This document shows, in pieces, positions 2,670-55,923 of a DNA stretch of 64,000 bases (positions within the stretch are counted from its first letter, which is position 1; each line of letters opens with the position of its first letter). This DNA is from Minisyncoccia bacterium (GTDB lineage Bacteria; Patescibacteriota; Minisyncoccia; Phycocordibacterales; UBA9973). A model generated the notes under the pieces. It ran no database searches and had not been told where the DNA came from. It saw nothing but the letters and a program-made list of their open reading frames with translations. The position numbers and the translations under genes were made by a program. The stretch is taken from assembly GCA_049287045.1 (NCBI GenBank), contig JBAQFC010000008.1:22198-86197 (forward strand). The letters are read 5' to 3'.

Positions 2670-4969
<2,300 letters not shown>

Positions 4970-9669: not shown

Positions 9670-10020
9670 TTAGTACTCTCGGCGTCCACCACTGCGATTT
9701 CCACCGCCGTATCCACCACTATTGCCTCCACTACTGTATCCACCTGCTCCACCAGTTCTTGGTGGGCGAGCTTCCATAGGGCGAGCTTCATTAACTGTAA
9801 GTTTGCGTCCTTCGAATTCCTGACCGTTAAACATTGAGACAGCACCTTGTGCTTCCTCGTCTGTTGACATTTCAACGAATCCAAAACCTTTTGAGCGACC
9901 GGACATTTTGTCCATGATAATCACAGCGGAAGTTACATTTCCTGCTTGTGCGAAAAGCTCTTTAAGAGCATCTTCTTGGGTACTGTAAGGAAGTCCCCCT
10001 ACGTATAGCTTTGTAGCCAT
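9670..10020 (-). CDS. RRM-type glycine-rich RNA-binding protein
   Basis: RNP-2 (LYVGGL) and RNP-1 (KGFGFVEM) motifs plus a C-terminal GGYGGGN-rich tail. Confidence 0.85.
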   Translation of the reverse strand: MATKLYVGGLPYSTQEDALKELFAQAGNVTSAVIIMDKMSGRSKGFGFVEMSTDEEAQGAVSMFNGQEFEGRKLTVNEARPMEARPPRTGGAGGYSSGGNSGGYGGGNRSGGRREY

Positions 10021-11245: not shown

Positions 11246-11303
11246 AAATTTATTATATCATCAAAAACACCCTCCTTGTGTAAAGGAGGGTGTTTAGAAG
11301 AAG

Positions 11304-17562: not shown

Positions 17563-17596
17563 CCAACCAAAGTCGGAGAGGATTTTTACTTTCTGC
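17563..17596. terminator. Rho-independent terminator downstream of dnaK
   Basis: aaaatcccctcc...ggagaggattttt stem-loop followed by a T-run on the minus strand. Confidence 0.5.
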
Positions 17597-17623
17597 GGAA
17601 GACTGTCCTTCGCAATATTTATA

Positions 17624-19540
17624 TTATTTTGCAGCTTCGTCAGCGGCTGGAGTTTCACCCTCCTTAGAATCAGCTTCATGAGTAGTAGCTTCTTCTTTTG
17701 GCTCTACTGGTGGTGCACCGGCATCATCTACTTTAGAAGATGCTTTTGCCATCTCTTCACCGATCTTGGACATCTCGCTAGAAAGTTCTTCAGTAGATTT
17801 TTTAATTGCATCCAAATCTGAACCTTCTTTCACTCCACGCAATGCTGTTATTTTTTCTTCAACACCTTTCTTTGTATCTTCAGAGATTTTTCCTTCATTA
17901 TCTTTCAATGCTTTTTCTGCTGTAAAGATAGTCATGTCGGCTGTGTTTTTTGCATCAGCGACTTCTTTTTTCTTTTTATCTTCATCAGCATGAAGCTCTG
18001 CGTCTTCTTGCATTTTTTTAATATCTTCAGGTTTCAATCCAGAACTAGCTTCAATTCTGATAGTCTGAGTTTTACCACTAGTTTTTTCTTTCGCAGTAAC
18101 ATTTAAGATTCCATTGGCATCAACATCGAAAGTCACTTCAACTTGTGGCATACCACGAGGAGCTGGAGGAACACCGTCCAAGATAAATCTTCCTAGAGAT
18201 TTGTTATCAGAAGCCATTGGACGCTCTCCTTGCACGATATGAATTTCGACAGAAGTCTGATTGTCAGCTGCAGTTGAAAATGTTTGTGATTTTGAAGAAG
18301 GGATAGTTGTATTTCTTTCTACAAGTTTTGTCGCAACTCCTCCAAGTGTTTCGATACCCAAGGAAAGAGGAATAACATCAAGCAAAAGAACATCACGTAC
18401 ATCACCTTGCAATACTCCAGCTTGGACAGCAGCACCGAGAGCTACCACTTCATCAGGATTGATTGTAAGGTTTGGAGTTTTACCGAATAATTTCTTTATT
18501 TCTTCGACAATTTTTGGCATTCTGGTCTGTCCTCCGACCATTATGATTTCATTTATTTCTTCGATTTTAAATCCAGATGCTGCAACTGCACGCTTTGCAA
18601 TATCTATCGAACGAGTAATATATTCATCAGCAATAGATTCCAATTGAGCACGAGTCATTTTCAACAACAAGTGTTGAGGACCAGCTGCGGTGGAAGTTAT
18701 GAAAGGAATATTTATTTCAGTTTCAATAGCTGTTGAGAGTTCGATTTTTGCTTTTTCTGCAGCTTCATCAAGACGCTGCAATGCCAATGCATCAGTTCGT
18801 ACATCTACACCGGAAGTCTTTTTAAATTCATCAGCAATCCAATTTATAATTTTATGATCAATATCGCGTCCACCAAGGTGACTATCACCATCAGTAGATT
18901 TTACTTCAATAACATCATCACCAACTTCAAGAACAGAAATGTCAGTTGTTCCGCCTCCGAAATCGTAGACTACAATCTTTTCATTTTTCTTTGAGTTCAA
19001 ACCATAAGCCAATGCTGCAGCTGTCGGTTCATTGATAATTCTTTTTACAGTCAGGCCAGCAATTTTACCCGCATCAATAGTTGCTTGTCTTTGTGTGTCA
19101 TTAAAATATGCAGGTACAGTAATAATCGCTTCAGTGATCTTCTCACCGATCTTTGCTTCCACGTCTGTTTTTATTTTTGACAAAATCATCGCAGAAATTT
19201 CTTCTGGACGCATCCACTTGTCTCCGATTTTTACTTCAACTCCACCATTTGCGCCTTTCTGAATTTTGAAAGAAGCATTCTTTAAATCTTTCTGCACTTC
19301 CGGATCTTCAAAATTGTGACCCATAAAACGCTTGATACCATAGATGGTATTTTCAGGATTTGTAACTGCTTGTCTTTTTGCTAAAAGACCGACAAGTCTG
19401 TCTCCATTTTTTGCAACAGAAACTACCGAAGGAGTCGTACGAGCACCTTCAATATTTTCTATTATTTTTGGCGCACCACCTTCGATGATAGCGACCGCTG
19501 AGTTTGTTGTACCTAAGTCTATTCCTATTATTTTTGCCAT
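17624..19540 (-). CDS. dnaK: molecular chaperone DnaK (Hsp70)
   Basis: [18 protein letters not shown], full 638-aa Hsp70 with an acidic C-terminal tail. Confidence 0.95.
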
Positions 19541-19645: not shown

Positions 19646-19680
19646 GAGCGACGAGCAGTTCGCTGGCGAAGCTTCGCCAG
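19646..19680. promoter_or_regulatory. GC-rich tandem palindromes in the dnaK/paaX divergent intergenic region
   Basis: agcga-cgagcagt-tcgct, overlapped by the 18-nt perfect palindrome ctggcgaagcttcgccag. Further imperfect inverted repeats (tagcaagc...gcttgtca, ttgtcaaaagacaa) lie at 19747-19789. Confidence 0.3.
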
Positions 19681-30768: not shown

Positions 30769-31887
30769 TTATATAACGACACCACCACCGAGGCAAACAT
30801 CTTTATCATAGAAAACGATAGATTGTCCTGGAGCAACGAGTACAGGTTTTTCAAAAATCACTTTTGCGGAAGTCGGACTTCCGCAAATTACTTGGCAAGG
30901 TAAAAATTCACCATGATAACGTACTTGAGCTGTATATTCTTTATTTTCATCTGGAGTGCCTGAGATCCAATTAATGTCACTAATTCTAATTTCTTCCCCT
31001 CCTTTTTGAGGAGGGGTGCTCTTTAGAGCGGGGTGGTGATTCTTTGAATTACCACCCCCAACCCCCTCCTTATTAAGGAGGGGGGAAATCTGTGACACAA
31101 TTATGATATTTTTCTTTACATCTTTACTAACAACATAATAAGCCCCATCATTCGGACCTTTTTTGGTAATGGTAAATCCATGTCTTTCACCTAGAGTCAG
31201 AAAAACAGCTCCGTCATGATATCCAATTTCTTCTCCTACCTCATTTAAAACTTTTCCCTTTTTCTCTTTAATATAATGTTTCAAAAAATCTTTCAAATCA
31301 ATATCACCTAGGAAGCAAATTCCCTGACTATCTTTCTTTTCTGCGACAGGTAATTTATATTTCTTTGCCAATTTTCTCACCGCTGTTTTATTCAAATGCC
31401 CTACGGGAAACAAAATATGTTTTAGTTGTTCTTGTTTTAATGTCCACAAGAAATAACATTGGTCTTTGGACGGATCAATGCCTTTAACTAATTTTTTTTC
31501 TAAAACTTGTGCATAATGCCCAGTCGCTACATAATCTGCACCCATTTCTAGAGCCTTTTTCAAGAAAGCACCGAATTTCACTTCTTTGTTGCACATAACA
31601 TCTGGGTTCGGAGTACGTCCCATTTTATACTCAGCAATCATATAGTCTGCGACTTCTTTTTTGTAAACATCTGAAAGGTCAAAAGTTAAAAATGGAATAT
31701 CCAAATGAGCCGCAACGCGCATAGCGTCGCGGCGCTCATCTTCTTCATTACAAACCAAAAAATCAGGGTGCCAGGTACGAATAAAGACCCCGACGACATC
31801 ATGTCCTTGATCTTTTAAAATTGCAGCGGAAACAGAAGAATCCACTCCGCCTGACATTCCTACAAATATTGTCTTTTTCTTCTTCAT
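30769..31887 (-). CDS. mnmA: tRNA 2-thiouridine(34) synthase MnmA (carries in-frame palindromic insertions)
   Basis: PP-loop SGGVDSS, catalytic cysteines, C-terminal beta-barrel. Contains the 90-bp GC-rich element at 30996-31085 and the 25-nt palindrome at 30863-30887, both in frame. Confidence 0.85.
   Translation of the reverse strand: MKKKKTIFVGMSGGVDSSVSAAILKDQGHDVVGVFIRTWHPDFLVCNEEDERRDAMRVAAHLDIPFLTFDLSDVYKKEVADYMIAEYKMGRTPNPDVMCNKEVKFGAFLKKALEMGADYVATGHYAQVLEKKLVKGIDPSKDQCYFLWTLKQEQLKHILFPVGHLNKTAVRKLAKKYKLPVAEKKDSQGICFLGDIDLKDFLKHYIKEKKGKVLNEVGEEIGYHDGAVFLTLGERHGFTITKKGPNDGAYYVVSKDVKKNIIIVSQISPLLNKEGVGGGNSKNHHPALKSTPPQKGGEEIRISDINWISGTPDENKEYTAQVRYHGEFLPCQVICGSPTSAKVIFEKPVLVAPGQSIVFYDKDVCLGGGVVI
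30863..30887. repeat. 25-nt palindrome tttgcggaagtcggacttccgcaaa (copy 1, inside mnmA)
   Basis: Near-identical to the palindrome at 39662-39688; encodes GSPTSAKVIF in frame. Confidence 0.5.
30996..31085. repeat. GC-rich triple stem-loop element inserted in frame in mnmA
   Basis: Three consecutive hairpins: cccctcc/ggagggg (30996-31016), ggggtggt/accacccc (31030-31058), ccccctcc/ggaggggg (31062-31084). The ~65% GC contrasts with the AT-rich surroundings. Encodes ISPLLNKEGVGGGNSKNHHPALKSTPPQKGGEE without stops. Confidence 0.6.
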
Positions 31888-31897
31888 TAAAATTAGC

Positions 31898-32428
31898 TTA
31901 CAGAGACATCAGCTTTTTGTAAAGCTCGAGGGTTGCGCGTATATCTGATAGCGCAGAATGTTCATGTTCATTTTTTATATCGAAATATGCACACAATTCA
32001 TGCAGTGACAACTTCTCAATATCCTCACGGTCATGCAATTTTGCATAAGCAATTGATATGGTATCGAGTAAATGAAAATGAAAAAATTTCTTTTTTGTTT
32101 TCGTTTCAAAAAAAGCTTTATCTAAAAATGCAGCATCAAAAGAAATATTATGTCCTATCATTGTTGAATCTTCTGTTTTATCGGCGAGTATTTTTATTGC
32201 TTCTTTCAAGGTGATAGCCTCTTCCCATTTTTCTTCATCGTAATGAACTATTTTTAGAGACACAGGATCAGCCGTCTCAATGTGTATTGGTTTTATTTTT
32301 AATGCGAACTCTTCTAGAATTTCAAAAGTTGGGCTCACAACAATACAACCAATCTCGATGATCTCATGCTGCATCAAGTTGAGGCCTGTAGTTTCTATAT
32401 CTATAAATGCTAAATTATGTTTTTTCAT
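31898..32428 (-). CDS. DEDD 3'-5' exonuclease (DnaQ/epsilon-like)
   Basis: Exo I FIDIETTGL, Exo II (HNISFDAAFL), Exo III (HSALSD). Confidence 0.7.
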   Translation of the reverse strand: MKKHNLAFIDIETTGLNLMQHEIIEIGCIVVSPTFEILEEFALKIKPIHIETADPVSLKIVHYDEEKWEEAITLKEAIKILADKTEDSTMIGHNISFDAAFLDKAFFETKTKKKFFHFHLLDTISIAYAKLHDREDIEKLSLHELCAYFDIKNEHEHSALSDIRATLELYKKLMSL

Positions 32429-32449
32429 AATGTTTAAATAAATTTGTTT

Positions 32450-33394
32450 CTATTTTAAATATCTAGCTATATTTTTTTTGTGTTCTGTAAAAGTGACAGC
32501 ATAATGAATCACACCATTTTTATCATGTAGATAAAAAAGATAAGGTGAATTTTCTGGTTTTAATGCAGCATTAATAGCTTCAATACCTGGATTCGATATA
32601 GGATTCTCAGGTAATCCCTTTGTTTTATATGTGACGGGTACAGCATCCACCTGGAGCATCATTCCTTTACTCAATCTATTCCAAAGAATACCAGAGATAA
32701 CACCTCGATCTGCATCTCCTTTTGCTTCACGTTCTACAATAGATGCCATAATAATAATGTCTTTTTCACTTTTACCAGATAAATTAATTTCAGATTGGAT
32801 TGGTTTAATTTTTTTACTAAAATTATCACTCATAGCCTTTAATACATCTTCTTCGTTTGCAGTAGTAAAGAAAAAATATGTATCAGGGAAAAGATACCCT
32901 TCTTTTTTTTGTGCTTCTAATAAAAATTTTTCTTTATTAAAATTTAATAATTTAGTAGACATGATATTTGAAATATCAGAAATATTAAATCCTTCTGGTA
33001 TAGTAATTTTTACAGGAAGTAAATGATGATCCCCATATGAGACTCTTCTAGCTACTTCAAAAACAAGGGACTTATTTTCAAAAAGATAATCTCCGGGTAC
33101 TATATGTTTTTCACCTCCATAAATAATGACGAAAGTTTCAAAAGCAACTCTAGATTTTATTATATGTTTTATTTCCAAATCTTTAGAAATACTTCTGAGA
33201 CTTGTTCCTTGTTCTATATTTATTATTTGCCCAACTGGAAAATTATTTGGTGCACTTAAAAATAAAAAATAGAAAATAATTACAATAACAAATATTCCGA
33301 TAGAACCAAAAAGAACTATCTTTAAGTAAGAATTTTGTTTAAAATTACTACCTAATTTATAGGCTGAATTATCTAAAGAAGGAATATTATCCAT
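32450..33394 (-). CDS. mltG: endolytic murein transglycosylase MltG (YceG-like)
   Basis: N-terminal TM, the YceG hallmark EGYLFPDTY, and a C-terminal catalytic region. Confidence 0.8.
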   Translation of the reverse strand: MDNIPSLDNSAYKLGSNFKQNSYLKIVLFGSIGIFVIVIIFYFLFLSAPNNFPVGQIINIEQGTSLRSISKDLEIKHIIKSRVAFETFVIIYGGEKHIVPGDYLFENKSLVFEVARRVSYGDHHLLPVKITIPEGFNISDISNIMSTKLLNFNKEKFLLEAQKKEGYLFPDTYFFFTTANEEDVLKAMSDNFSKKIKPIQSEINLSGKSEKDIIIMASIVEREAKGDADRGVISGILWNRLSKGMMLQVDAVPVTYKTKGLPENPISNPGIEAINAALKPENSPYLFYLHDKNGVIHYAVTFTEHKKNIARYLK

Positions 33395-33397
33395 AAA

Positions 33398-34651
33398 TTA
33401 TATAGGCAGATTAGAAGGAGGAGCTGCCTCTTTTGATTCAATACGTTCAAGAGTAGGAACCTGTAATATCTGACCTGGAAAATGAAAAATAGTAGCCAAC
33501 TCTTCAGTGTTAAGAACCGAAATATTTGGATGACTATATTTTGGAAAAAATAATGAAACAGGAAAAGGAATTGGAATATGGTGTATAAGAGGTGGGTAAA
33601 AGAAAGCTCTCTCTCTGTACTCTTCAAGCATTCTGTCTTTAAATCTAAAAAGAGAAGTAGAAGTGTATTGCCAAAAATGACTGAAACTTGTTGTATTCAC
33701 TCTCTTAAAACTATTCAAGGATGCTGACTCATACTGGCGGAAAATTAAACGAAGATTACGCTTGGTATTGTTTTGAAAATTTTCTTTCTTTGCCACATAA
33801 CAAACTCTTATTCCTGTATCGAACCCAACCTTGGCGCTTTTTTTGGTCATACCTTCCAAGACAGGATCCAACCATTTTGGTAATAATTTAAATGAAGATT
33901 CACCCTCTCCTTTTGTATATTTTTCGGTAAGCTCTTTCATTACATGTTCTGATTCTTCAAGCCATCCATGATGTTTTGATCTTGTGCCATGAGTATGAAA
34001 TTTTTTTTGTGAAGGTGCTATAACTATTTGCATCCATACTTGTTCACCTTTTTCGATTGAACCAAAAAGTTCTATAACCGGAGAAATCGGATCAACCTTG
34101 AATTCTTCTTTAGGGTCTTTATCTAATCCAAAATCAACATAAGTTTTAATAGGATATGCATCAGGTTTTGCTAAAGTAAATTCACACCCCCAAAGATCCC
34201 ATCCGCTCTGAGGTGATATTTTATTAACAGCTAAAGTATAATCCTCTGCTACTTTTACTTGTGCTTGAGGATACTGCGCATACAATTGAGTCTCGATTAA
34301 ACTCTTCATTCGGGATGGAGCTCGAAGATAAAAATGAACCTGACCTCCAATAGAAACAATCTCAAGTGAAAACCACAACTGAACTGCTCCAAGCCAGTAT
34401 GTTTCAAGAAATCCTTTATTACTTAAAGAATAAAGTCCGTTAGTAAAAAATAATTCCATTGCCTTAGGTGATCTTAAAACATCTCGTGGAGGAACTATTT
34501 CAAGCAGAACCCAATCAATACCAGCAATGAAATCATGTTCTACATAGTGATGCCAAAAAAGCCATGCAAAATGAGCAAGGAGTGCGAACCCAACAAAGGG
34601 CCAAACTGCGGAAAAAATATACGAAGAAAAATAAACTATTGAATCAACCAT
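33398..34651 (-). CDS. hypothetical membrane protein
   Basis: 417 aa with two N-terminal TM helices and a Trp-rich soluble domain; no family assigned. Confidence 0.4.
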   Translation of the reverse strand: MVDSIVYFSSYIFSAVWPFVGFALLAHFAWLFWHHYVEHDFIAGIDWVLLEIVPPRDVLRSPKAMELFFTNGLYSLSNKGFLETYWLGAVQLWFSLEIVSIGGQVHFYLRAPSRMKSLIETQLYAQYPQAQVKVAEDYTLAVNKISPQSGWDLWGCEFTLAKPDAYPIKTYVDFGLDKDPKEEFKVDPISPVIELFGSIEKGEQVWMQIVIAPSQKKFHTHGTRSKHHGWLEESEHVMKELTEKYTKGEGESSFKLLPKWLDPVLEGMTKKSAKVGFDTGIRVCYVAKKENFQNNTKRNLRLIFRQYESASLNSFKRVNTTSFSHFWQYTSTSLFRFKDRMLEEYRERAFFYPPLIHHIPIPFPVSLFFPKYSHPNISVLNTEELATIFHFPGQILQVPTLERIESKEAAPPSNLPI

Positions 34652-34845
34652 TAGTTATATTTTAATACATAAGTGAGACAAATCAAAATAAATTGGGGAT
34701 AGATTATTACTATTGAACCTGAGATGAATCAATTTCTGAGTTAGAACCTTGTTGCACAGAAAAAAAACCTAAAAGTACCAGGATAACTAGAACACCAATT
34801 AAAATTAAAATAATGTGAGCGATACCCTTATTGTACATAATAAGA

Positions 34846-35874
34846 TTAAGCTAAAGTATAAAGTCCGTTTTTGTTCTTCTTAAAGTATTTTGGATTCTGT
34901 AGATTTACTAAAATAGTATTCTTTTTAAAATATCTTTCTTTCATTACTCTTTCTACTACATCTTCTTTTGAAAGTGGTCCTTCTCTTTTTAGAATGTCAC
35001 GGATAACTTCACGAGCGATTCCTGTCTTGTAGCCCCATTCTGCAAGAGCGTACATTCCACGTCCAACAAGGACAAAGCGAGGGTCTTTGATAAGTTCATT
35101 GTGACAAGTTGCATAGTGTGTCTTTCTTCCAAAAGTTTTAGAAATAGAATCAGCAACTTCACGGAAGTGCATAGGATTACCATGTTTTCTCATTACTAAA
35201 AAGGCATAGTCTTTTACTCCACGAGTGTGAATATTTGGTGATGTTGATTTACCCCATTCTCCAAGAGGATTCTTTGATATAGTTTTAGAAATTGTCAGCC
35301 ATCTCTTAGCCATCTCTTCATTTTTGAACTGTTCAGAAACATCTTTCATTTGATCAAAAAACTTTTTAATCATTTCAGTTTCAGGAACAAGATCTGCATC
35401 ACTCAAACTTGAATAAAGTTTTTTTAGAGAATCATGAACTTTAGAAGCCATATCATCATCAATACTCCAACGTGTTTGGAAATGATCGTCTTCACGATGT
35501 TTCTTGAAGGAATCACCTAAAACCATATAAAAATGAATGTGGTTCTGAGTAGCTTTATCTTTTGATATTGAAGGCAAAAATTCATGTTCAGCGACAATTG
35601 AACCAAGAGAATGTATCAATTGTTTTATCTCATCAAAAGTAACCTGTTCTGCTTTATAAGCATCAGATTTCTTGATTGAAGCCAAAGCGGCATCTTCAAT
35701 CTGTCGAACACGTTCTCGTGTGATACTGTATTTCTTACCGATTTCTTCTAGAGTTTTACGTTGAGCATCAGCAGTCAAACCAAAACGATTCATGATAACA
35801 TCGCTCGCACGATCCTGAAGATGTGAAGTTATTTTCTTTGTTACTTGTTTTGGTTTAAATGATATTGTTGACAT
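34846..35874 (-). CDS. DNA-binding protein with N-terminal sigma-70 region-4-like HTH and C-terminal HARE-HTH domain
   Basis: SITRERVRQIEDAAL is the sigma r4 motif. The C-terminus FREVADSI...IKDPRFVLVGRGMYALAEWGY matches the HARE-HTH pattern seen in the RNAP delta subunit. Confidence 0.5.
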   Translation of the reverse strand: MSTISFKPKQVTKKITSHLQDRASDVIMNRFGLTADAQRKTLEEIGKKYSITRERVRQIEDAALASIKKSDAYKAEQVTFDEIKQLIHSLGSIVAEHEFLPSISKDKATQNHIHFYMVLGDSFKKHREDDHFQTRWSIDDDMASKVHDSLKKLYSSLSDADLVPETEMIKKFFDQMKDVSEQFKNEEMAKRWLTISKTISKNPLGEWGKSTSPNIHTRGVKDYAFLVMRKHGNPMHFREVADSISKTFGRKTHYATCHNELIKDPRFVLVGRGMYALAEWGYKTGIAREVIRDILKREGPLSKEDVVERVMKERYFKKNTILVNLQNPKYFKKNKNGLYTLA

Positions 35875-35924
35875 AATCTTTAAAAATAATTTTTAATAAT
35901 AAATAGTATTTTGGTTACATATAC

Positions 35925-35951
35925 ATATTACACTCATTTTTAACAATGTCA
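35925..35951 (-). promoter_or_regulatory. sigma-70-like promoter (TTGACA-16-TAATAT) for the sigma-r4/HARE-HTH gene
   Basis: Minus strand ttatgtcaaggtaaaatTTGACAttgttaaaaatgagtgTAATAT. The -35 lies in an atgtcaa...ttgacat palindrome. Confidence 0.35.
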
Positions 35952-35980
35952 AATTTTACCTTGACATAAATGCAATATTT

Positions 35981-37786
35981 TTACTTTCGTAAAGCTTTGA
36001 TACGGTCTTGTTCTGTAAGGTACTTCTTGCGTAGTCTGACTGATTTTGGTGTTATTTCTAAGTACTCATCTGAATTCATAACTTCAAGAGCTCGTTCGAT
36101 GGTCAAAGTATAAACAGGCTTAAGGAATAAGGCTTCATCGGTACCAGAAGCACGCATATTTGTAAGCTGCTTACCTTTTGTAGGATTCACTGCCATATCT
36201 TCCCCTTTTAATACGTTACCAACAACCATTCCTTCGTAAACCTCAGTTCCGTGTTCAATAAAGAGAACTCCACGATCCTGCAAGTTTGCTAGAGAGAAAG
36301 CAACTGCTTTACCAGCAACCATAGAGGTCATAGCACCGTATTCTCGTCTCTTGATTTCTCCTGCATAGTCCTGGAATCCTGTTACTCGTGAGGACATAAT
36401 ACCCTCACCTTTTGTGTCCACAGTAAATTCTCCACGGTAACCCAAAAGTCCACGTGTAGGAATATCGAAAACGATTCTCGCAATACCTTCCTTTTCAGTC
36501 ATATCTTTCATGATACCGCGGCGCTTTCCCATCTTTTCAATAACAACACCGGAAGATTCCATAGGGACATCAACAACCAATTCTTCGTAAGGTTCTGTCT
36601 TTTTACCATTCACTTCTTTGATGATAACCTCGGGCTGAGATACCTGCATTTCGAATCCTTCTCGGCGCATGTATTCCAAAAGAATCGCAACGTGTAACTC
36701 ACCTCTTCCATAAATTTTAAAGAAACTAGGACCTGATTTTATTTCACCTTGATCGGGAGAAAAATCTACTTTAAGACCAACGTTAATTTCAAGTTCTTTT
36801 TCAAGTCTTTCTTTGATCTGTCTTGAAGTAACAAATTTTCCTTCTTTACCTGCGAATGGAGAATCGTTCACTAAAAGGTTCAAGGAAATTGTAGGCTCAT
36901 CAATAGCAATGTGTGGTAAAGGTTCTACACTTTCATCTCCACAAATTGTCTCACCGATATAAATATCAGGAATACCAGCAAGAAGCACGATATCACCTGA
37001 TGTCGCTTCTGTGACATCTTTTCTACTAATACCTTCAAAGGTAAATAATTTTGTAATTCTTGCTGGTCTTGTACCATTTTCTCCTTTAACAAAGAGCTGA
37101 CTATTTGGAGTTATTTTTCCGGAATAAATTCTAGCGACAGCCATTCTACCTAAAAAGTTATCATAACCAAGGTTGAAAACCTGTGCAGACATTTTTGCAT
37201 CTTCATTTACAGATGCTGCTGGAACTTTTTCTAAAATAAGATCTAGAAGTGGAGACAAATCTTTAGATTCATCATTAAGATGTCTCTTTGCTAAACCTTG
37301 ACGGCCGATAGCATAAATAGTTTCAAAGTTTGCTTGTTCATCAGTTGCACCAAGTTCAAAAAACAAACCAAGAACTTCTTCGTGTACACGATTTGGATCT
37401 GCAGCGGGCTTGTCGATCTTATTAATAACGACGATAGGTTTAAGTCCTAACTCTAGAGACTTCTTTAAAACGAATCGAGTCTGAGGCATAGGTCCTTCAA
37501 CAGCATCCACCAAAAGAAGCACGGAATCAATCGCACGCAAAACACGCTCGACTTCAGAACCGAAGTCAGCGTGTCCAGGAGTATCAACAATGTTGATCTT
37601 TGTACCTTTATAATTAATAGAAGTATTTTTAGAATAAATAGTAATACCACGCTCTTTTTCAATAGCGTTTGAGTCCATGGTCAATCCTTCATCTTGAAGG
37701 CCTCCATTTTGTTTCATTAGGGCGTCGGTCAAGGTAGTCTTGCCGTGGTCAACGTGTGCGATAATTGCGATGTTTCTGATTTCCAT
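35981..37786 (-). CDS. typA: translational GTPase TypA/BipA
   Basis: G1-G5 motifs ([18 protein letters not shown]); 601 aa; TypA-specific C-terminus. Confidence 0.9.
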
Positions 37787-37918
37787 TTTGTGTATTTTTT
37801 ATAATAATAATATTGCCTCATCGGCAATCCACCGTAGAGGCGGAATAAAACAAAAAAGCCCGAGGGCTTCATTTGAATAAATCTATAATAGCATAGTTTT
37901 TCTAAAACAGCAAATAAA

Positions 37919-37946
37919 AAACACCACATAATATCGTGGTGTTTTT
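37919..37946. terminator. Rho-independent terminator after the 550-aa secreted protein gene
   Basis: acaccac-ataatatc-gtggtgt followed by a T-run. A second hairpin, aagcccgagggctt, lies at 37852-37868. Confidence 0.5.
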
Positions 37947-37968
37947 TATTTGCTGAAAGCTTTAAAAA

Positions 37969-39621
37969 TTAATTTATATTAATAGTATTACCCAAAATTG
38001 TAGGTCCAAAACTTAACGCATTACCATTAGAATTATCAATAGCAGTAAAATTAGTAAGTTGTATCAGAACATCCCTGCCTGCAGATGTAGATGACAAATC
38101 ACCTTTAATGGTTAGTGGTATTGTTTGTCCAGCAAGAATAGTGACAGCATCATTTATACCTGTATTTATATTAACCACAACAGATGGTGAAGATACCACA
38201 GACCCTAATTGAATTGAAGAGTTGTATGCAGATACATTAGTAAGACCGTCAGAAATAGATCCTGAAATATTCAGACTTACACCCGTCAATTTTACATCAC
38301 AAGAAGATGAAGCAGTCAGATTAAAGATTGCTAAATTTGCTGCAACGGTTCCAGCTTGAATATAACCACTAGGAGAATTATTTGCTTTAGCCACAGAAAG
38401 ACCACAAGCAGTAGAAGAAGTAGAACTCGAATTTATTGTAAATAGATTATTTGATTGACCATAAATCACATTAGTACCAGAACCCCAATTACCACTAGGC
38501 TGAAGATAATGAACTGTAAGATATATATTAAAGTTTTTTCCATAACCATAAATAGAATTTCCTAGTGGAGGTAATGTAAATAATTCTATCCCATCATCAG
38601 CAGTTGTCCCTACTAATTGAGTGGTAATTTTATTCTGAGGTGTAAGAGGTGAAATAGCTCCAATTGTTCCTGTGCCATTGGGATTATTAAGCTGTGCAGT
38701 GATAGCACTACCATTTGGTAAATTACAACTCGTCCATTTAACCATCATTTGTTGACCTGCTGTATATGTCTCTCCACCGTAAGGTGAAAGGACTGTTATG
38801 CTTGGTGATGAAGTTGAAGTACAACCAACTGTTGTCTGAACAGGAGCAGCAGTAGGAAGCGGAACAGGAAGTTGAGAAGAAGTAAGAACAGGGGTGGTTG
38901 TAACTGGAACAGGAGTAGCTGTGGTTGCAGTAGTAGGTGAAACATAATTAGTTGGATATACGTTTGGAACTTCAGGAGTCATAGTTGTAGTTAATTGTAT
39001 TGTACTAGTAGTACATGGCAATCCTGTCATTGAACTAAATTTATGACCCAGTAAACAACCGTCATTATATTTTTGATCATTCATTTTTGTACCAGAAGCA
39101 TTAAAAGATGTAGTTGTGGGCATCGCTTGTGTTGTCATTACAGGTACAGCCATTGCTTTTGGAACTGTTTGTGGAATATTTGATGTTGGTGTTGTTGGTG
39201 CAGGAGCAGGAGCAGTAGCAGTGGTTGTGGAAGTTGGTTGCTGAATTGTACTAACAGGTGTTGTAGTTGTGTTGTCTGTATTTACACAATCAATTTCTTT
39301 TATCTTTGCAATAGTAAAAGAACCGACATATCCTGTAGGACTTATACCATTTGATTTTTGAAAAGTCTTAACAGCTTTCAAAGTCGCATTACCAAAATAG
39401 CCACTAGCGGTAGCAGTTAAAAACTTATTAGTATTAAGAAAATCTTGTAAAAGAGAGACGTCATCGTTAGTATTAACATCTCTACTACCTAAACGTAGGT
39501 TGTGAGTAATAACAGCGCAATTAGAATTACCTAATGGATCAACATCTGTTTGTTGAGCAAGAGATAAACTTGGAATAATAAAAAAACCAACTAGAAACAA
39601 AATTCCTATATATTTTTTCAT
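37969..39621 (-). CDS. secreted cell-surface protein with peptidoglycan-binding (PG_binding_1-like) domain and Thr/Pro-rich linkers
   Basis: Signal peptide; the segment GSRDVNTNDDVSLLQDFLN...LKAVKTFQKSNGISPTGYVG resembles the PG_binding_1 fold; long T/P/A low-complexity; beta-rich C-terminus. Confidence 0.5.
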   Translation of the reverse strand: MKKYIGILFLVGFFIIPSLSLAQQTDVDPLGNSNCAVITHNLRLGSRDVNTNDDVSLLQDFLNTNKFLTATASGYFGNATLKAVKTFQKSNGISPTGYVGSFTIAKIKEIDCVNTDNTTTTPVSTIQQPTSTTTATAPAPAPTTPTSNIPQTVPKAMAVPVMTTQAMPTTTSFNASGTKMNDQKYNDGCLLGHKFSSMTGLPCTTSTIQLTTTMTPEVPNVYPTNYVSPTTATTATPVPVTTTPVLTSSQLPVPLPTAAPVQTTVGCTSTSSPSITVLSPYGGETYTAGQQMMVKWTSCNLPNGSAITAQLNNPNGTGTIGAISPLTPQNKITTQLVGTTADDGIELFTLPPLGNSIYGYGKNFNIYLTVHYLQPSGNWGSGTNVIYGQSNNLFTINSSSTSSTACGLSVAKANNSPSGYIQAGTVAANLAIFNLTASSSCDVKLTGVSLNISGSISDGLTNVSAYNSSIQLGSVVSSPSVVVNINTGINDAVTILAGQTIPLTIKGDLSSTSAGRDVLIQLTNFTAIDNSNGNALSFGPTILGNTININ

Positions 39622-39661
39622 ACTATAAGTATATCACAACACAAAATAAGCTGGTATACTA

Positions 39662-39688
39662 GTTTGCGGAAGTCCGACTTCCGCAAAC
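39662..39688. repeat. 27-nt palindrome gtttgcggaagtccgacttccgcaaac (copy 2; also a likely terminator)
   Basis: 13-bp perfect stem abutting the znuB-like stop; near-identical to the element at 30863-30887. Confidence 0.5.
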
Positions 39689-40491
39689 TATTGACCTCTT
39701 TTAAAGAAGAAAACAATAGCGAAAATAGAAAGCATTAGTAAGACTATTGTCCCACCGGTAGAAAGATTTAAATAAAAAGAAAAAATGATTCCGGAAATTA
39801 CAGAGAAAATAGAGATAATTTCTGCATAGATGATTGTCTGTATAAAACTTTTACGTAGTTGTAATGCTGTGACCACTGGAACAACTATCAAAGCAGCAAT
39901 TAATAAAACACCTACGATTGGCATTGCAAGAGACACTGTTAGGGCTGTAAGAAAAATAAGGGTTGTATTAATAAAACGAACTGGTACACCACTAACCTTC
40001 GCGGCTTCTTCATCGAAGGTCACATATACAAGTTCTTTATAGAAAGTAAATAAAGTAATGACAACTACAATAGCTAAAAGGCTAATCATAAATACATCGT
40101 TTGCTGTAACAGTGACAATACTTCCAAATAAATAATTAAAAAGATTCGCATTCAAACCATTAGAAAGACTGAGTAAAACAATAGCCAACGCCAAACTACC
40201 AGACATAAATAAAGCTAAAGATGATTCACCATAAACTTTTTTAGAAGTACGAAGACGTTCGATTCCAAATGAAGCTAAAACAGTCGAACCCAAAGCAGTT
40301 ACCATCGGATTCAAGCCAAGAAGTAATCCGATTGAGATACCTGCCAGAGACACGTGAGAAAGAGTATCAGCAATAAGAGAGTATCTTCTAAGAACAAGAA
40401 AAATACCTATCAATGGAGCAATAATAGCCACGACTATTCCAGCTTCCAATCCCCTGACCACAAAACCATATTGTAAAATATTTTCTAACAT
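39688..40491 (-). CDS. metal (Zn/Mn) ABC transporter permease
   Basis: ZnuB/TroC-like 8-TM permease. Confidence 0.7.
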   Translation of the reverse strand: MLENILQYGFVVRGLEAGIVVAIIAPLIGIFLVLRRYSLIADTLSHVSLAGISIGLLLGLNPMVTALGSTVLASFGIERLRTSKKVYGESSLALFMSGSLALAIVLLSLSNGLNANLFNYLFGSIVTVTANDVFMISLLAIVVVITLFTFYKELVYVTFDEEAAKVSGVPVRFINTTLIFLTALTVSLAMPIVGVLLIAALIVVPVVTALQLRKSFIQTIIYAEIISIFSVISGIIFSFYLNLSTGGTIVLLMLSIFAIVFFFKRGQ

Positions 40492-49369: not shown

Positions 49370-49490
49370 AAGTGTGCGTTAGGAAGGAGTTTCTCTCCTT
49401 ACAGGAGCAGTAGGCCTTTTCTAATTCTTCGGGAAGGAGTTTCTCGGCTTACAGCCGCAGTATACCTTTTGCATCCCGCAATGCGGGATA
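49370..49490. repeat. two tandem ~53-nt tRNA-Tyr-derived degenerate repeats plus a 17-nt palindrome
   Basis: Unit 1 (49372-49420) begins gtgtgcgttaggaaggag, cf. the tRNA 3' end gtgcgtcgggaaggat. Both units carry a hairpin with loop TTACA (anticodon-loop-like TGTAA on the minus strand) whose stems differ compensatorily (ctcc/ggag vs cggc/gccg). Palindrome atcccgcaatgcgggat at 49472-49488. Confidence 0.45.
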
Positions 49491-54555: not shown

Positions 54556-55923
54556 CTAATTATACCACTTTTTTAGTTTGGTCAAAATTTGAGACAAAGC
54601 CTTTAGTGTGTAGTCAATATCTGCTTTAGTTGTCTGTCTGCCAAGAGAAAATCTGATTGATCCATCAATTTCTTTATTAACCAATAACTCCCCTAACTGT
54701 GCTTCACGGATAGCTTGTATTACATGAGAAGCCTTTTCATCACCTGATTTACAAGCACTTTTGACAGAGGCCATAATTCCATGAGCAGAAAGTTCGATTA
54801 CCAAAAGATCACTTGGAATTTTTGGAATCGTGATGTTTATATTGTTAGGTAGTCTGTTTTTTAGGTCACCATTTAAAATTACTTTCCCCGAAACCAGGTT
54901 TAGGGGAAAATCCCCTAAACCTGGTTTCTGGAAATGTGTAGTGTCAAGGCTTAACCTTGACATTTTTTTAATAAAATAATCACGAAGTTTAATTAAACGT
55001 TTTACTTCTTTGTCTTTTATTTGTTCAACAGTTTTTAAAGCTTTTGCTAGTCCGACAATCCCGACAATATTTTCTGTCCCTGGTCTTAATCCAAATTCTT
55101 GGTCACCACCAAATATAATATTAGTGATAGGTGTCATTCTTTTTATATACAAAACCCCAACACCACTAGGCCCATAAATTTTTGATCCATTAAATGAAAA
55201 CAAATCAACACCAAGTTTTTCAACATTGATTGATAAATAGTTTATTGCTTGTGTGGCGTCGGTATGAAAAACTGGAAAAATACCAAGGTCGGACCTTTCT
55301 AAATTCTTAAGGTCCGACCTTTTTGCAACTTTATTTTTTCGATAATGACGAATCTCTTTTGCAATTTCTCTTATTGGTTGAATCGTACCAATCTCATTAT
55401 TTGCGTACATTACAGAAACCAAAATCGTATTTGATTTTAATGCTTTTTTAATTTTCTCGGGATCTACTATTCCATTTTCTTCTACTGGCACATAAGTCAC
55501 TTCTATTTGTTTTGTTTTTTCTAAATGTTTACACACTTCCAGAACGGAAGCATGTTCTATATTCGTGGTGATTATATGAGGAATAATTTTTCGAGTATTT
55601 TTTGAAATGCCTTGCGCAGGCTGACGAGCCGAGCAGAGCAATTTGCCAGCAGGCAAATATGTGTGCATTTGAAAAAATGACTCGTAAAATTTATTAATCA
55701 CACCAAGTAGAGCCAAATTATTACTCTCTGTTGCACCAGAGGTAAAAACCACTTCATTAGAGTGTGCACCTAAAATCTTGGCAATTTCTTCTCTTACTTC
55801 ATTCAGTTGTTTTTTCGCTTTCACACCAAAATCGTGAATTGCTCCAGGATTAGCAGGATTAGCTGAAGCACCACTGGCATAATCCATATATATATTCTTT
55901 GATTTTTTGATTGATTTAACCAT
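54556..55923 (-). CDS. cysteine desulfurase (NifS/IscS family) carrying two in-frame repeat-element insertions
   Basis: PLP-lysine region FNGSKIYGPSGVGVLY and the active-site Cys loop SVKSACKSG. Two extra segments, encoded by the repeats at 55600-55677 and 54889-54929, interrupt otherwise IscS-like sequence. Confidence 0.8.
   Translation of the reverse strand: MVKSIKKSKNIYMDYASGASANPANPGAIHDFGVKAKKQLNEVREEIAKILGAHSNEVVFTSGATESNNLALLGVINKFYESFFQMHTYLPAGKLLCSARQPAQGISKNTRKIIPHIITTNIEHASVLEVCKHLEKTKQIEVTYVPVEENGIVDPEKIKKALKSNTILVSVMYANNEIGTIQPIREIAKEIRHYRKNKVAKRSDLKNLERSDLGIFPVFHTDATQAINYLSINVEKLGVDLFSFNGSKIYGPSGVGVLYIKRMTPITNIIFGGDQEFGLRPGTENIVGIVGLAKALKTVEQIKDKEVKRLIKLRDYFIKKMSRLSLDTTHFQKPGLGDFPLNLVSGKVILNGDLKNRLPNNINITIPKIPSDLLVIELSAHGIMASVKSACKSGDEKASHVIQAIREAQLGELLVNKEIDGSIRFSLGRQTTKADIDYTLKALSQILTKLKKWYN
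54889..54929. repeat. perfect 18-bp-stem hairpin element in frame inside the cysteine desulfurase gene
   Basis: gaaaccaggtttagggg-aaaa-tcccctaaacctggtttc encodes QKPGLGDFPLNLVSG; a second small hairpin, caagg-cttaa-ccttg, follows at 54945-54959. Confidence 0.55.
55600..55677. repeat. 75-nt structured repeat, copy A (in frame within the cysteine desulfurase gene)
   Basis: aaatgccttgcgcaggctgacgagccgagcagagcaa + 18-nt hairpin + atgtgtgcattt, bounded by the inverted ends tttgaaatgc/gcatttgaaa. 49 of ~75 nt are identical to copy B at 58720-58795. Confidence 0.6.

Follow-up and report, generated by a model that had tools for sequence, protein, structure and literature searches.

Two palindromes in a Minisyncoccia contig as probable copies of a REP-like hairpin repeat with a RAYT-like transposase partner

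The systems closest to the element described here are the repetitive extragenic palindromes (REP) and REPINs, which together with a REP-associated tyrosine transposase (RAYT, or TnpA_REP) make up a 'REPtron' (Nunvar 2010; Ton-Hoang 2012; Bertels & Rainey 2011; Quentin 2018, PMC6006769). REPs within genes have been described previously (PMC3733652); REP/RAYT systems and REPtrons are likewise known, as are REPs located in tnpAREP genes. We have analyzed a 64,000-nt stretch of DNA from a Minisyncoccia bacterium (contig JBAQFC010000008.1, positions 22,198 to 86,197), hereafter called the window and numbered from its first letter, in which two copies of a short palindrome are found, one inside mnmA and one at the end of a metal transporter permease gene. 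We consider it probable that both belong to a non-autonomous, REP-like family of hairpin repeats with a RAYT-like Y1/HUH transposase as its partner, of which they would be orphan copies. The family exists across Patescibacteria, is associated with RAYT-like genes, differs in type along with the gene that it flanks, and has copies that are read in frame. Judged by sequence, its association with flanking RAYT-like genes appears to be the REPtron arrangement.

Other described elements resemble the hairpin in part. Rickettsia palindromic elements (RPE) were reportedly recognized by Ogata and colleagues in 2000 as selfish DNA inserted in frame in protein genes. Like RPEs, the hairpins are palindromic repeats read in frame in essential genes; in both cases, the genome is reduced and AT-rich, and surface loops tolerate the repeat. 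However, RPEs are 100-150 bp long and add 30-50 residues, whereas the present unit is about 21 nt long and contributes hardly any extra residues, or none, in four of the five sites compared. Furthermore, we know of no dedicated transposase for RPEs, whereas the Patescibacteria hairpin has an associated Y1 transposase. The HIP1 motif of cyanobacteria and the uptake sequences (USS/DUS) of Pasteurellaceae and Neisseriaceae also lie in coding sequence without indels and with their translation tolerated, at orthologous sites common to species and in lineage-specific variants. In contrast to the hairpin, these motifs are 8-12 nt long, occur about once per kb, have many near-matches and are without a flanking-transposase signature. 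The IS200/IS605 elements (IS608, ISDra2) have an enzyme of the same superfamily, which recognizes subterminal hairpins on single strands. Here, unlike in those elements, the transposase gene apparently has not multiplied and occurs once, at a conserved locus; what is dispersed is only the hairpin, and there is no tnpB.

The two palindromes and their family

The pattern GCGGAAGTCSGACTTCCGC has exactly two matches in the window, at 30866-30884 and 39666-39684, and none in 100 dinucleotide-preserving shuffles of the window, which bears out an earlier note on this DNA in calling the near-identity of the two copies unlikely by chance. Both copies are odd-length palindromes whose central base is their sole difference over 25 nt; they are therefore exact reverse complements over that length. 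The length of 25-27 nt given in the earlier note is right for the first copy, but the second is longer (Table 1). Like REPs, both are short, GC-rich hairpin repeats, and both are perfect. Both strands of each copy form hairpins in DNA folding (-12 to -15 kcal/mol, z-scores -7 to -10), and RNA folding of the two copies gave z-scores of -3.3 and -4.7. As the earlier note had it, one copy is coding and the other lies at a gene end. Copy 1 is translated within mnmA as ICGSPTSAKVIF, where the palindrome codes CGSPTSA at a beta-hairpin turn in the C-terminal domain of MnmA. The outer arm of copy 2 supplies the TAG stop codon of the permease ORF (39688-39690), and this copy is 38 nt upstream of the ATG of the next minus-strand gene. 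No other sequence within three mismatches of the 15-nt core was found in the 64 kb, and an Rfam scan of the window at gathering thresholds gave six tRNAs only, with no match at either palindrome.

One genome per bacterial and archaeal species was scanned with the pattern GCGGAAGTCNGACTTCCGC, and the 19-mer was found at 89 loci. Of the copies of the 19-nt core, 68 are in loci with a GC content of 50% or less, almost all with the label Nomurabacteria, Paceibacterota, 'Saccharibacteria', Zambryskibacteria, Ryanbacteria, Nealsonbacteria or 'Patescibacteria group', and the other 29 are in high-GC genomes, where a chance match to a GC-rich motif is far more likely. Since the probability of 18 specified bases at 40% GC is about 3e-12 per position, the low-GC copies are not explicable by chance. 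The palindromes belong to a family of roughly 21-base hairpin repeats of tiny-genome groundwater Patescibacteria of the Paceibacteria/Nomurabacteria type. Thus, of the two explanations offered by the earlier note, a family of short palindromic elements is upheld: the same 19-21-mer is present in dozens of Patescibacteria genomes and flanks RAYT-like genes. In the flanks of the 68 copies, the only conserved bases beyond the 19-mer are a T at -1 (71%) and an A at +1 (78%), by which the palindrome simply becomes longer. The unit is therefore about 21-23 nt, with the consensus YT-GCGGAAGTC-S-GACTTCCGC-AR.

Representative genomes have between 1 and 14 exact copies, most of them 1-2 and a few 3-4; the maximum of 14 is in JACPXJ01, a metagenome-assembled genome (MAG) in which the 19-mer flanks a RAYT-like gene, in line with a copy number that follows the transposase. 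REPIN-like inverted doublets occur at some loci (L013, L014, L045 and L050, in our numbering of loci), but most copies, both of those in the window included, are singlets. Tandem half-site duplications are seen in L008, L028 and L037. The 21-mer had zero matches in IMG/VR viral contigs, hence no sign of phage carriage. At six high-GC loci, L042, L055, L069 and L082 (Acidobacteriota) and L027 and L061 (PVC group), the 19-nt core with a variable centre is part of a longer repeated unit, for example GGAGTGCGGAAGTCNGACTTCCGCTCTGAAAAGCGGCACT...AGTGCCGCACT; these are probably unrelated REP-like families with the same stem sequence.

The earlier note had asked for copies to be counted and sorted by context. 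With ORFs of at least 120 aa considered, 53 of the 68 low-GC copies lie within ORFs. The palindrome is without a stop codon in all six frames, and the copies in ORFs are read as AEVxLP(Q) in 39 cases, CGSxTSA in 9 and RKSDFR in 5. The central codon is Gly in 27 and Arg in 12 of the AEVxLP copies, and Pro in 8 and Arg in 1 of the CGSxTSA copies. This skew of frames and the Gly or Pro centre point to selection on the encoded peptide, favouring turn-forming residues. Identical 19-21-mers occur in more than 12 unrelated genes. In three other genomes, L004 and L020 among them, the copy in mnmA is at the very codons of copy 1. PDB or Pfam matches confirm mnmA, GatB, glutamate dehydrogenase (GDH), MurE and ArgRS as host genes, and Fmt, TatD, ApbE, UvrC and a RecD-like helicase are labelled by reading of the sequence alone. 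For a host protein of about 860 aa (the L019 group), an assignment as ribonucleotide reductase (RNR) was ruled out by alignment to the RNR of L174. Intergenic copies stand directly after stop codons, as REPs do.

RAYT-like genes and their flanking palindromes

At L041, a 1-kb stretch around a minus-strand ORF of 230 aa (3094-3783) contains four copies of the 19-mer: one immediately precedes the ATG, another follows closely, and in frame, on the HUH motif (MPNHFHIYITLDEN-LRKSDFRK), and the other two are downstream. The encoded protein matches the NCBIfam model REP_Tyr_transpos (REP-associated tyrosine transposase) with E = 3e-12, at 46.5 bits and thus under the curated cutoff of 80, and Pfam Y1_Tnp at 22.3 bits, the cutoff being 23. 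A PDB search with its sequence gave no match. An AlphaFold model made with 52 homologues has a pLDDT of 88.4 and a pTM of 0.88, and its top PDB fold match is 4ER8, the E. coli RAYT with bound REP hairpin (E = 3.4e-7, TM 0.63, target-normalised), followed by ISDra2 and IS608 TnpA. The palindrome-coded loop, residues 91-100, is the sole internal low-confidence stretch of the model. The HUH motif (NHFH) and the tyrosine of YIHLNP are invariant in the RAYT-like proteins. More than 7500 homologues are in the protein collection, some of them named RayT by JGI. In having a Y1/HUH transposase, here with an E. coli RAYT as its best structural match, that is flanked by its own repeat type, this locus is like the REP/RAYT systems.

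Ten RAYT-like genes were examined (L041, L008/L050, two in L028, L060, L172, L173, L174, L175 and L178). At both ends of each of the ten, no more than about 60 nt from the start and from the stop, there is a perfect palindrome of the gene's own type; seven of the genes also contain a perfect family palindrome internally, past the HUH motif. Around one RAYT-like gene the palindrome type does not change, but it differs between genomes (Table 1); in brief, the flanking types are GCGGAAGTC-S, GCGGAAGC-aag, GCGGAAGAC-c, GCCAAAGTC-g, GCGAAAG-caaga and others. The exact 19-mer is the flanking type in L041 and L008/L050, and a close variant of it is found in L060, where the copy inside the gene is the 19-mer, which is related to the flanking type of L060 without being the same sequence. 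In 120 homologues, the post-HUH loop shows the translated palindromes RKSDFRK, RKQGFRK, RKTVFRK, LPKSDFGK, RMSDIR, HMSDMW and others. One repeat type per transposase gene, with more than one such gene possible per genome, is also the rule in REP/RAYT systems. In L041, L172 and L174, the gene lies between lysS/aspS and mraZ-rsmH. This common locus suggests single-copy vertical inheritance, as described for RAYTs.

The palindromes upstream of the RAYT-like genes are followed by a -10-like box (gTATCAT, gTACTAT, TATACT or gTATAAT) 7-15 nt before the ATG, which suggests, from the sequence, that the hairpin may overlap the promoter of the transposase gene. A perfect DnaA box (TTATCCACA) is present a few nt upstream of the palindrome preceding the RAYT-like gene in L041 (about 3817-3835) and L172 (about 9940-9965).

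Sites in host genes and the surroundings of the two copies

The mnmA gene was compared in 120 protein homologues and 80 loci with DNA. At the codons of copy 1, orthologues from different genomes have different perfect palindromes of the same design (Table 1). Further states of this loop are several other palindromes, slightly decayed ones, an element of the GPERSRRAE type and AT-rich, palindrome-free sequence (KIISKTKAE). Loop length is uniform except in the carriers of the GPERSRRAE-type element and a few others (e.g., L130, L161 and L169). The earlier note would have doubted a family if the two copies were the only ones and the MnmA residues were conserved; there are many copies outside the window, and the palindrome-coded residues are the most variable of the orthologue alignment. 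Three of the RAYT-flanking types (GCGGAAGTC, GCGGAAGC-aag and GCGGAAGAC-c) can be read as DNA at the mnmA loop of different genomes, and the type of L174 (GCCAAAGTC) presumably occurs there too, from the peptides CQSRTLA/CQSPTLA in P0002 and P0016 only. In a neighbour-joining tree of mnmA, the palindrome types are unclustered: pairs of the same type are 73-78% identical, the overall mean being 74%, and the nearest neighbours of palindrome-bearing genes are mostly palindrome-free. With deep branches poorly resolved, this argues against simple vertical inheritance of types but is no proof of recurrent gain.

The 19-mer also occupies the same site of the same gene in GatB (L010, L018, L021 and L066) and in GDH (L043, L077, L081 and L085). 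The single GatB site is read as SAEV[R/G]LPQ, xAEARLPQ (the 'aag' type) or NLDIRCPS, with a palindrome-free majority such as NPEIKLPS and essentially no variation in length, so that at least two RAYT-flanking types are present at one fixed site. In GCA_028718635.1, the GatB site has a perfect 'aag' type, and the mnmA site has the same type with two synonymous C>T changes. Lengths were compared with those of distant homologues of solved structure (for MnmA, 2HMA and 9HLV). The differences are small in four of the five genes (Table 1); in these four, therefore, the palindrome fills sequence of native length and is not an added block. The palindrome-coded AEVGLP-Q of GDH is aligned to the native AEYGKSIQ, and the E, L and P that the palindrome codes in GatB are residues conserved in palindrome-free orthologues. 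True insertions are also seen, namely the copy within the transposase gene, when compared with homologues that have no copy (P0196, L028), a doublet that gives L013 10 aa more than L044, and the tandem half-site duplications. The edges of a conversion patch were not visible in GatB of L018, L176 and L177, the nearest relatives that differ in the state of the site, these being only 78% identical in DNA, and GatB of L175 was too divergent to align at the palindrome site.

Two further elements are found in these host genes. In the mnmA loop of L092, L117, L127, L136, L144, L147, L149, L150, L154 and L163, there is a different GC-rich element (gaaggtcctgagcgaagtcgaagggc) that codes (A)EGPERSRRA(E); in several of these loci, it has truly been inserted and makes the loop +3 to +9 aa longer. 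The GatB gene of GCA_028718635.1 (L179 10393-10435) has an in-frame inverted doublet of TCGGACGTtggACGTCCGA with 21-nt arms, coding SVSDVGRPKFGRPTSDGE, which looks like a REPIN-like dimer inside a housekeeping gene.

A relative, GCA_036169735.1 (L170), is syntenic with window 20002-41334 at about 92-93% nucleotide identity and covers 21 kb only. Its mnmA copy has one synonymous C>T change relative to copy 1 (TTTGTGGAAGTC...), by which a G:U pair is still possible. Copy 2 is missing from it. Homology to the window, with 91.9% nucleotide identity up to that point, ends at 39700, four codons ahead of the permease stop, and resumes at 39622; therefore, copy 2 lies exactly on an indel and synteny breakpoint of a variable region. 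In L170 (1636-3009), the permease is followed by two extra opposite-strand genes, for a sigma-70 factor and a DUF5667 protein, at a place where the window has nothing but the palindrome, and then by a much shorter PG_binding gene: the product has 267 aa there versus 550 aa in the window, and the two are 72% identical over the first ~390 nt only. Copy 2 would thus have arrived with, or promoted, a local rearrangement.

Table 1. Features of the window, palindrome types at RAYT-like genes and at the mnmA loop, and differences in length at occupied sites
Feature	Position or locus	Strand	Description
Palindrome copy 1	30863..30887		25 nt, 12-nt arms, central G; TTTGCGGAAGTC-G-GACTTCCGCAAA; in frame inside mnmA
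Palindrome copy 2	39660..39690		31 nt, 15-nt arms, central C; TAGTTTGCGGAAGTC-C-GACTTCCGCAAACTA; intergenic; outer arm has the permease stop
Degenerate candidate family member	17594..17614		Intergenic; TGCGGAAGAC-t-GTCCTTCGCA, full TGCGGAAGACtGTCCTTCGCA; two mismatches to sister type TGCGGAAGACcGTCTTCCGCA
mnmA, tRNA 2-thiouridine synthase	30769..31887	minus	372 codons; E = 2.5e-84 to solved MnmA; Pfam tRNA_Me_trans domains in homologues
ABC-3 family metal transporter permease	39688..40491	minus	L170 orthologue carries Pfam ABC-3/FecCD
Secreted PG_binding-type protein gene	37969..39621	minus	Downstream of copy 2; variable region
Palindrome at RAYT-like gene	L041, L008/L050		GCGGAAGTC-S-GACTTCCGC
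Palindrome at RAYT-like gene	L172		TGCGGAAGC-aag-GCTTCCGCA
Palindrome at RAYT-like gene	L173		TGCGGAAGAC-c-GTCTTCCGCA
Palindrome at RAYT-like gene	L174		TTGCCAAAGTC-g-GACTTTGGCAA
Palindrome at RAYT-like gene	L175		TGCGAAAG-caaga-CTTTCGCA
Palindrome at RAYT-like genes	L028		TGTGAAGGT-tcg-ACCTTCACA, plus a second type
Palindrome at RAYT-like gene	L060		TCCGCGGAAGT-tgg-ACTTCCGCGGA
Palindrome at RAYT-like gene	L178		CAGACAGCGCCT-t-AGGCGCTGTCTG
mnmA loop type	window, L004, L020		19-mer
mnmA loop type	L118, L120, L164, L165		TGCGGAAGCaagGCTTCCGCA
mnmA loop type	L152		TGCGGAAGACcGTCTTCCGCA
mnmA loop type	L103, L109, L111, L115		TGTGCAAAGTcgaACTTTGCACA
mnmA loop type	L098, L126, L131		TGTGCAACATCgGATGTTGCACA
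Length difference at site	mnmA		+2 aa
Length difference at site	GatB		-2 to -3 aa
Length difference at site	GDH		-1 aa
Length difference at site	ArgRS		about -1 to +2 aa
Length difference at site	MurE		+3 to +6 aa

The degenerate candidate lies in a 53-nt spacer, 10 nt past the stop of a minus-strand ORF (17624..19540), and its sister type TGCGGAAGACcGTCTTCCGCA is the one found around the RAYT-like gene of L173. Tentatively, on its sequence, the candidate may count as a third, decayed member of the family in the window.

The window also contains other hairpin elements. The triple-hairpin element mentioned in the earlier note is indeed nearby, at 30985-31090, about 100 nt from copy 1 and in frame in mnmA (minus strand). 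It is GC-rich, consists of CCCCTCCTttttgAGGAGGGG, a GGGGTGGT...ACCACCCC hairpin and CCCCCTCCTTAtTAAGGAGGGGG, and adds about 22 aa relative to solved MnmA structures. Over some 200 columns that include it, L170 and the window have four differences, none of them in the first 133 columns, and the flanking gene is about 92% identical. Hairpins of the CCCCTCCTT type are also present in L013, L020, L036, L097, L123, L133, L157 and L179. Other GC-rich perfect hairpins are located at 11265-11295, 19663-19680, 49473-49489, 54890-54928 and 54942-54962. The last two form a pair with 18-nt arms, then TGTCAAGGcttaaCCTTGACA, inside a 474-codon minus-strand open frame; palindromes of the TGTCAAGG type are also found in L030, L058, L064 and L074. 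In GCA_028718635.1 (L178 5530-7278), at the position that corresponds to window 34652-34845, two ORFs, one of 284 aa and the other a RAYT-like gene with a weak match to Pfam Y1_Tnp and with CAGACAGCGCCTtAGGCGCTGTCTG on its flanks, lie between a HARE-HTH/sigma70_r4 gene and a DUF8128 gene, about 3 kb from mnmA. The same position in the window and in L170 has only a 195-nt spacer and no RAYT-like gene.

Alternative explanations, spread and meaning

Several observations weigh against a REP/RAYT-type origin of the two palindromes. A tblastn search of the 64-kb window gave no match for a RAYT-like gene, MraZ, RsmH or LysS, so that the partner gene would have to exist, or once have existed, elsewhere in this genome. 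Several genomes with 3-4 copies showed no RAYT-like gene adjoining any copy, and L174 has one copy that does not match its own RAYT-flanking type. Copy number is low, two in 64 kb and 1-14 per genome, whereas canonical REPs number in the hundreds. About 78% of the low-GC copies are intragenic, whereas REPs are canonically extragenic. The GT[AG]G or CGTC tag at the foot of REP hairpins is not present in the flanks of the 68 copies. The stems are perfect, with 1-5-nt loops, in contrast to the bulged, imperfect stems of REPs, and the host lineage, Patescibacteria, is a different one. Furthermore, the copies in host genes mostly stand in place of native codons without a change in length, whereas REPs add 20-30 aa, and the near-constant length at mnmA, GatB, GDH and ArgRS is not predicted by the known peel-and-paste insertion of Y1 enzymes.

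Could the hairpin be maintained by the host without any transposase, as an mRNA stem-loop that serves 3'-end stability, ribosome pausing or RNase cutting and is preserved by selection and compensatory change? The codon-fixed position in mnmA, GatB and the RAYT-like gene, with stems that co-vary while pairing stays perfect, would fit this, as would the significantly stable RNA folds and the intergenic copies right behind stop codons. Slightly decayed copies show three single substitutions, one in L170 and two in L178, each of them a C>T that gives a G:U pair, but C>T is expected anyway in AT-rich genomes, and G>A changes with A-C mismatches are also seen (L095 and L124). Identical 19-21-mers in so many unrelated genes and at RAYT flanks require copying, not independent compensation. 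The hairpin is dispensable, since the site is hairpin-free in the majority of mnmA and GatB orthologues, and the types are unclustered on the mnmA tree. We therefore regard this explanation as unlikely.

The second proposal of the earlier note, a protein-binding site reused as a terminator, fares worse. As a palindromic operator or terminator for the metal ABC transporter operon or the PG-binding gene, copy 2 is suitably placed between two co-directional genes, with the stop codon included; GTATAC follows it on the gene strand, and at RAYT loci the upstream copy adjoins a -10-like box. The mnmA copy would then be due to chance or secondary. However, copy 2 is not called in a terminator and promoter scan of 39400-39900, its tail is GTATACCAGC, and no T-run follows either copy, whereas terminator-like hairpins at other sites of the window have A/T-run flanks. 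L170 retains the transporter operon without the palindrome, most family members are inside unrelated ORFs, and the half-site GCGGAAGT is not enriched (three occurrences in the 64 kb, two of these within the palindromes). This makes a regulatory site very improbable.

A motif similar to DNA uptake sequences, built up by mutation and biased transformation, is slightly less probable again. In known cases, motifs come to lie in coding regions with no change in length and, at the ends of genes, as inverted pairs, and Patescibacteria are thought to rely on DNA uptake. It would account for the small or absent change in length, the mimicry of native peptides at GatB and GDH and the lineage-specific 'dialects' at orthologous sites. 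However, the motif occurs about once per 30 kb where about once per kb would be expected, half-sites alone are not enriched, and the strict tie to the flanks of RAYT-like genes is left unexplained. Furthermore, in 646 kb of loci not selected for the motif, sequences within four mismatches of the 19-mer are almost all perfect sister-type palindromes, with no degenerate cloud around them. On these sequences, the missing near-matches argue for all-or-none templated events over a gradual mutational build-up. Chance coincidence or an assembly or sequencing artefact, which would fit the low copy number in the window and nothing else, can practically be dismissed, given the shuffles and the same sequence in independent assemblies of many studies, in frame in conserved genes.

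We therefore return to the REP-like hairpin with a RAYT-like partner. In the proposed mechanism, the palindrome would fold to a hairpin on single-stranded DNA, which the RAYT-like enzyme would recognize, cut and rejoin. The hairpin would thereby be copied to new places, and all copies of a genome would stay matched to the current specificity of the enzyme. The partner gene would be single-copy and vertically inherited; in related genomes, the same palindrome precedes the start codon of this gene, follows its stop codon and, in genes of the lysS-mraZ type, is also read in frame after the HUH motif. Patescibacteria genomes are about 90% coding, and copies therefore would persist mainly in protein loops. 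The palindrome has no stop in six frames, and its centre codon can be Gly or Pro. The mnmA copy would be a tolerated loop-coding copy of this kind, and copy 2, at a gene end, would be in the classical position of a REP.

The small or absent change in length at mnmA, GatB, GDH and ArgRS suggests that hairpins overwrite sequence and are not plainly inserted. We suggest tentatively, as a possibility to which we give less than even weight, that hairpins spread by overwriting, that is, by templated conversion of a patch of about 21 nt to the current cognate palindrome of the genome, with the length unchanged. The overwritten patch would be an older hairpin or a native coding segment already resembling the palindrome. 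This could occur by cuts of the RAYT-like enzyme at both hairpin feet with strand exchange, by insertion beside a resident hairpin followed by deletion, for which the doublets would be candidate intermediates, or by ectopic template switching at stalled hairpins. If so, hairpins at fixed codons of mnmA, GatB, GDH, ArgRS and the transposase gene would evolve in concert and decay once conversion ends. Propagation of this kind would have no described counterpart among REP/RAYT or IS200/IS605 systems, and it would give the protein loops of ultra-small genomes a built-in turnover of sequence.

In a literature search of incomplete coverage, we found no description of REP/RAYT systems or palindromic repeats in Patescibacteria, which does not prove that there is none. 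The Patescibacteria host, the tagless perfect palindrome, the low copy number and the mostly coding location thus appear to be new, and above all the constant-length, codon-fixed turnover of types that tracks the transposase flanks. REP/RAYT systems are among the few vertically persisting bacterial repeat families. The same codons with different palindromes, together with the type matched on either side of the transposase gene, are a natural data set for the matching of Y1 enzymes to hairpins, and the same data can be used to ask whether hairpins are overwritten in place. In marker genes of CPR MAGs, the hypervariable 7-aa patches (AEVGLPQ, CGSPTSA and RKSDFRK) and the length variants affect alignments, phylogenies and assembly. 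For Patescibacteria, the finding looks like a REPtron-type system of bare, perfect 21-nt hairpins that, with little intergenic space, reside in the loops of housekeeping proteins.

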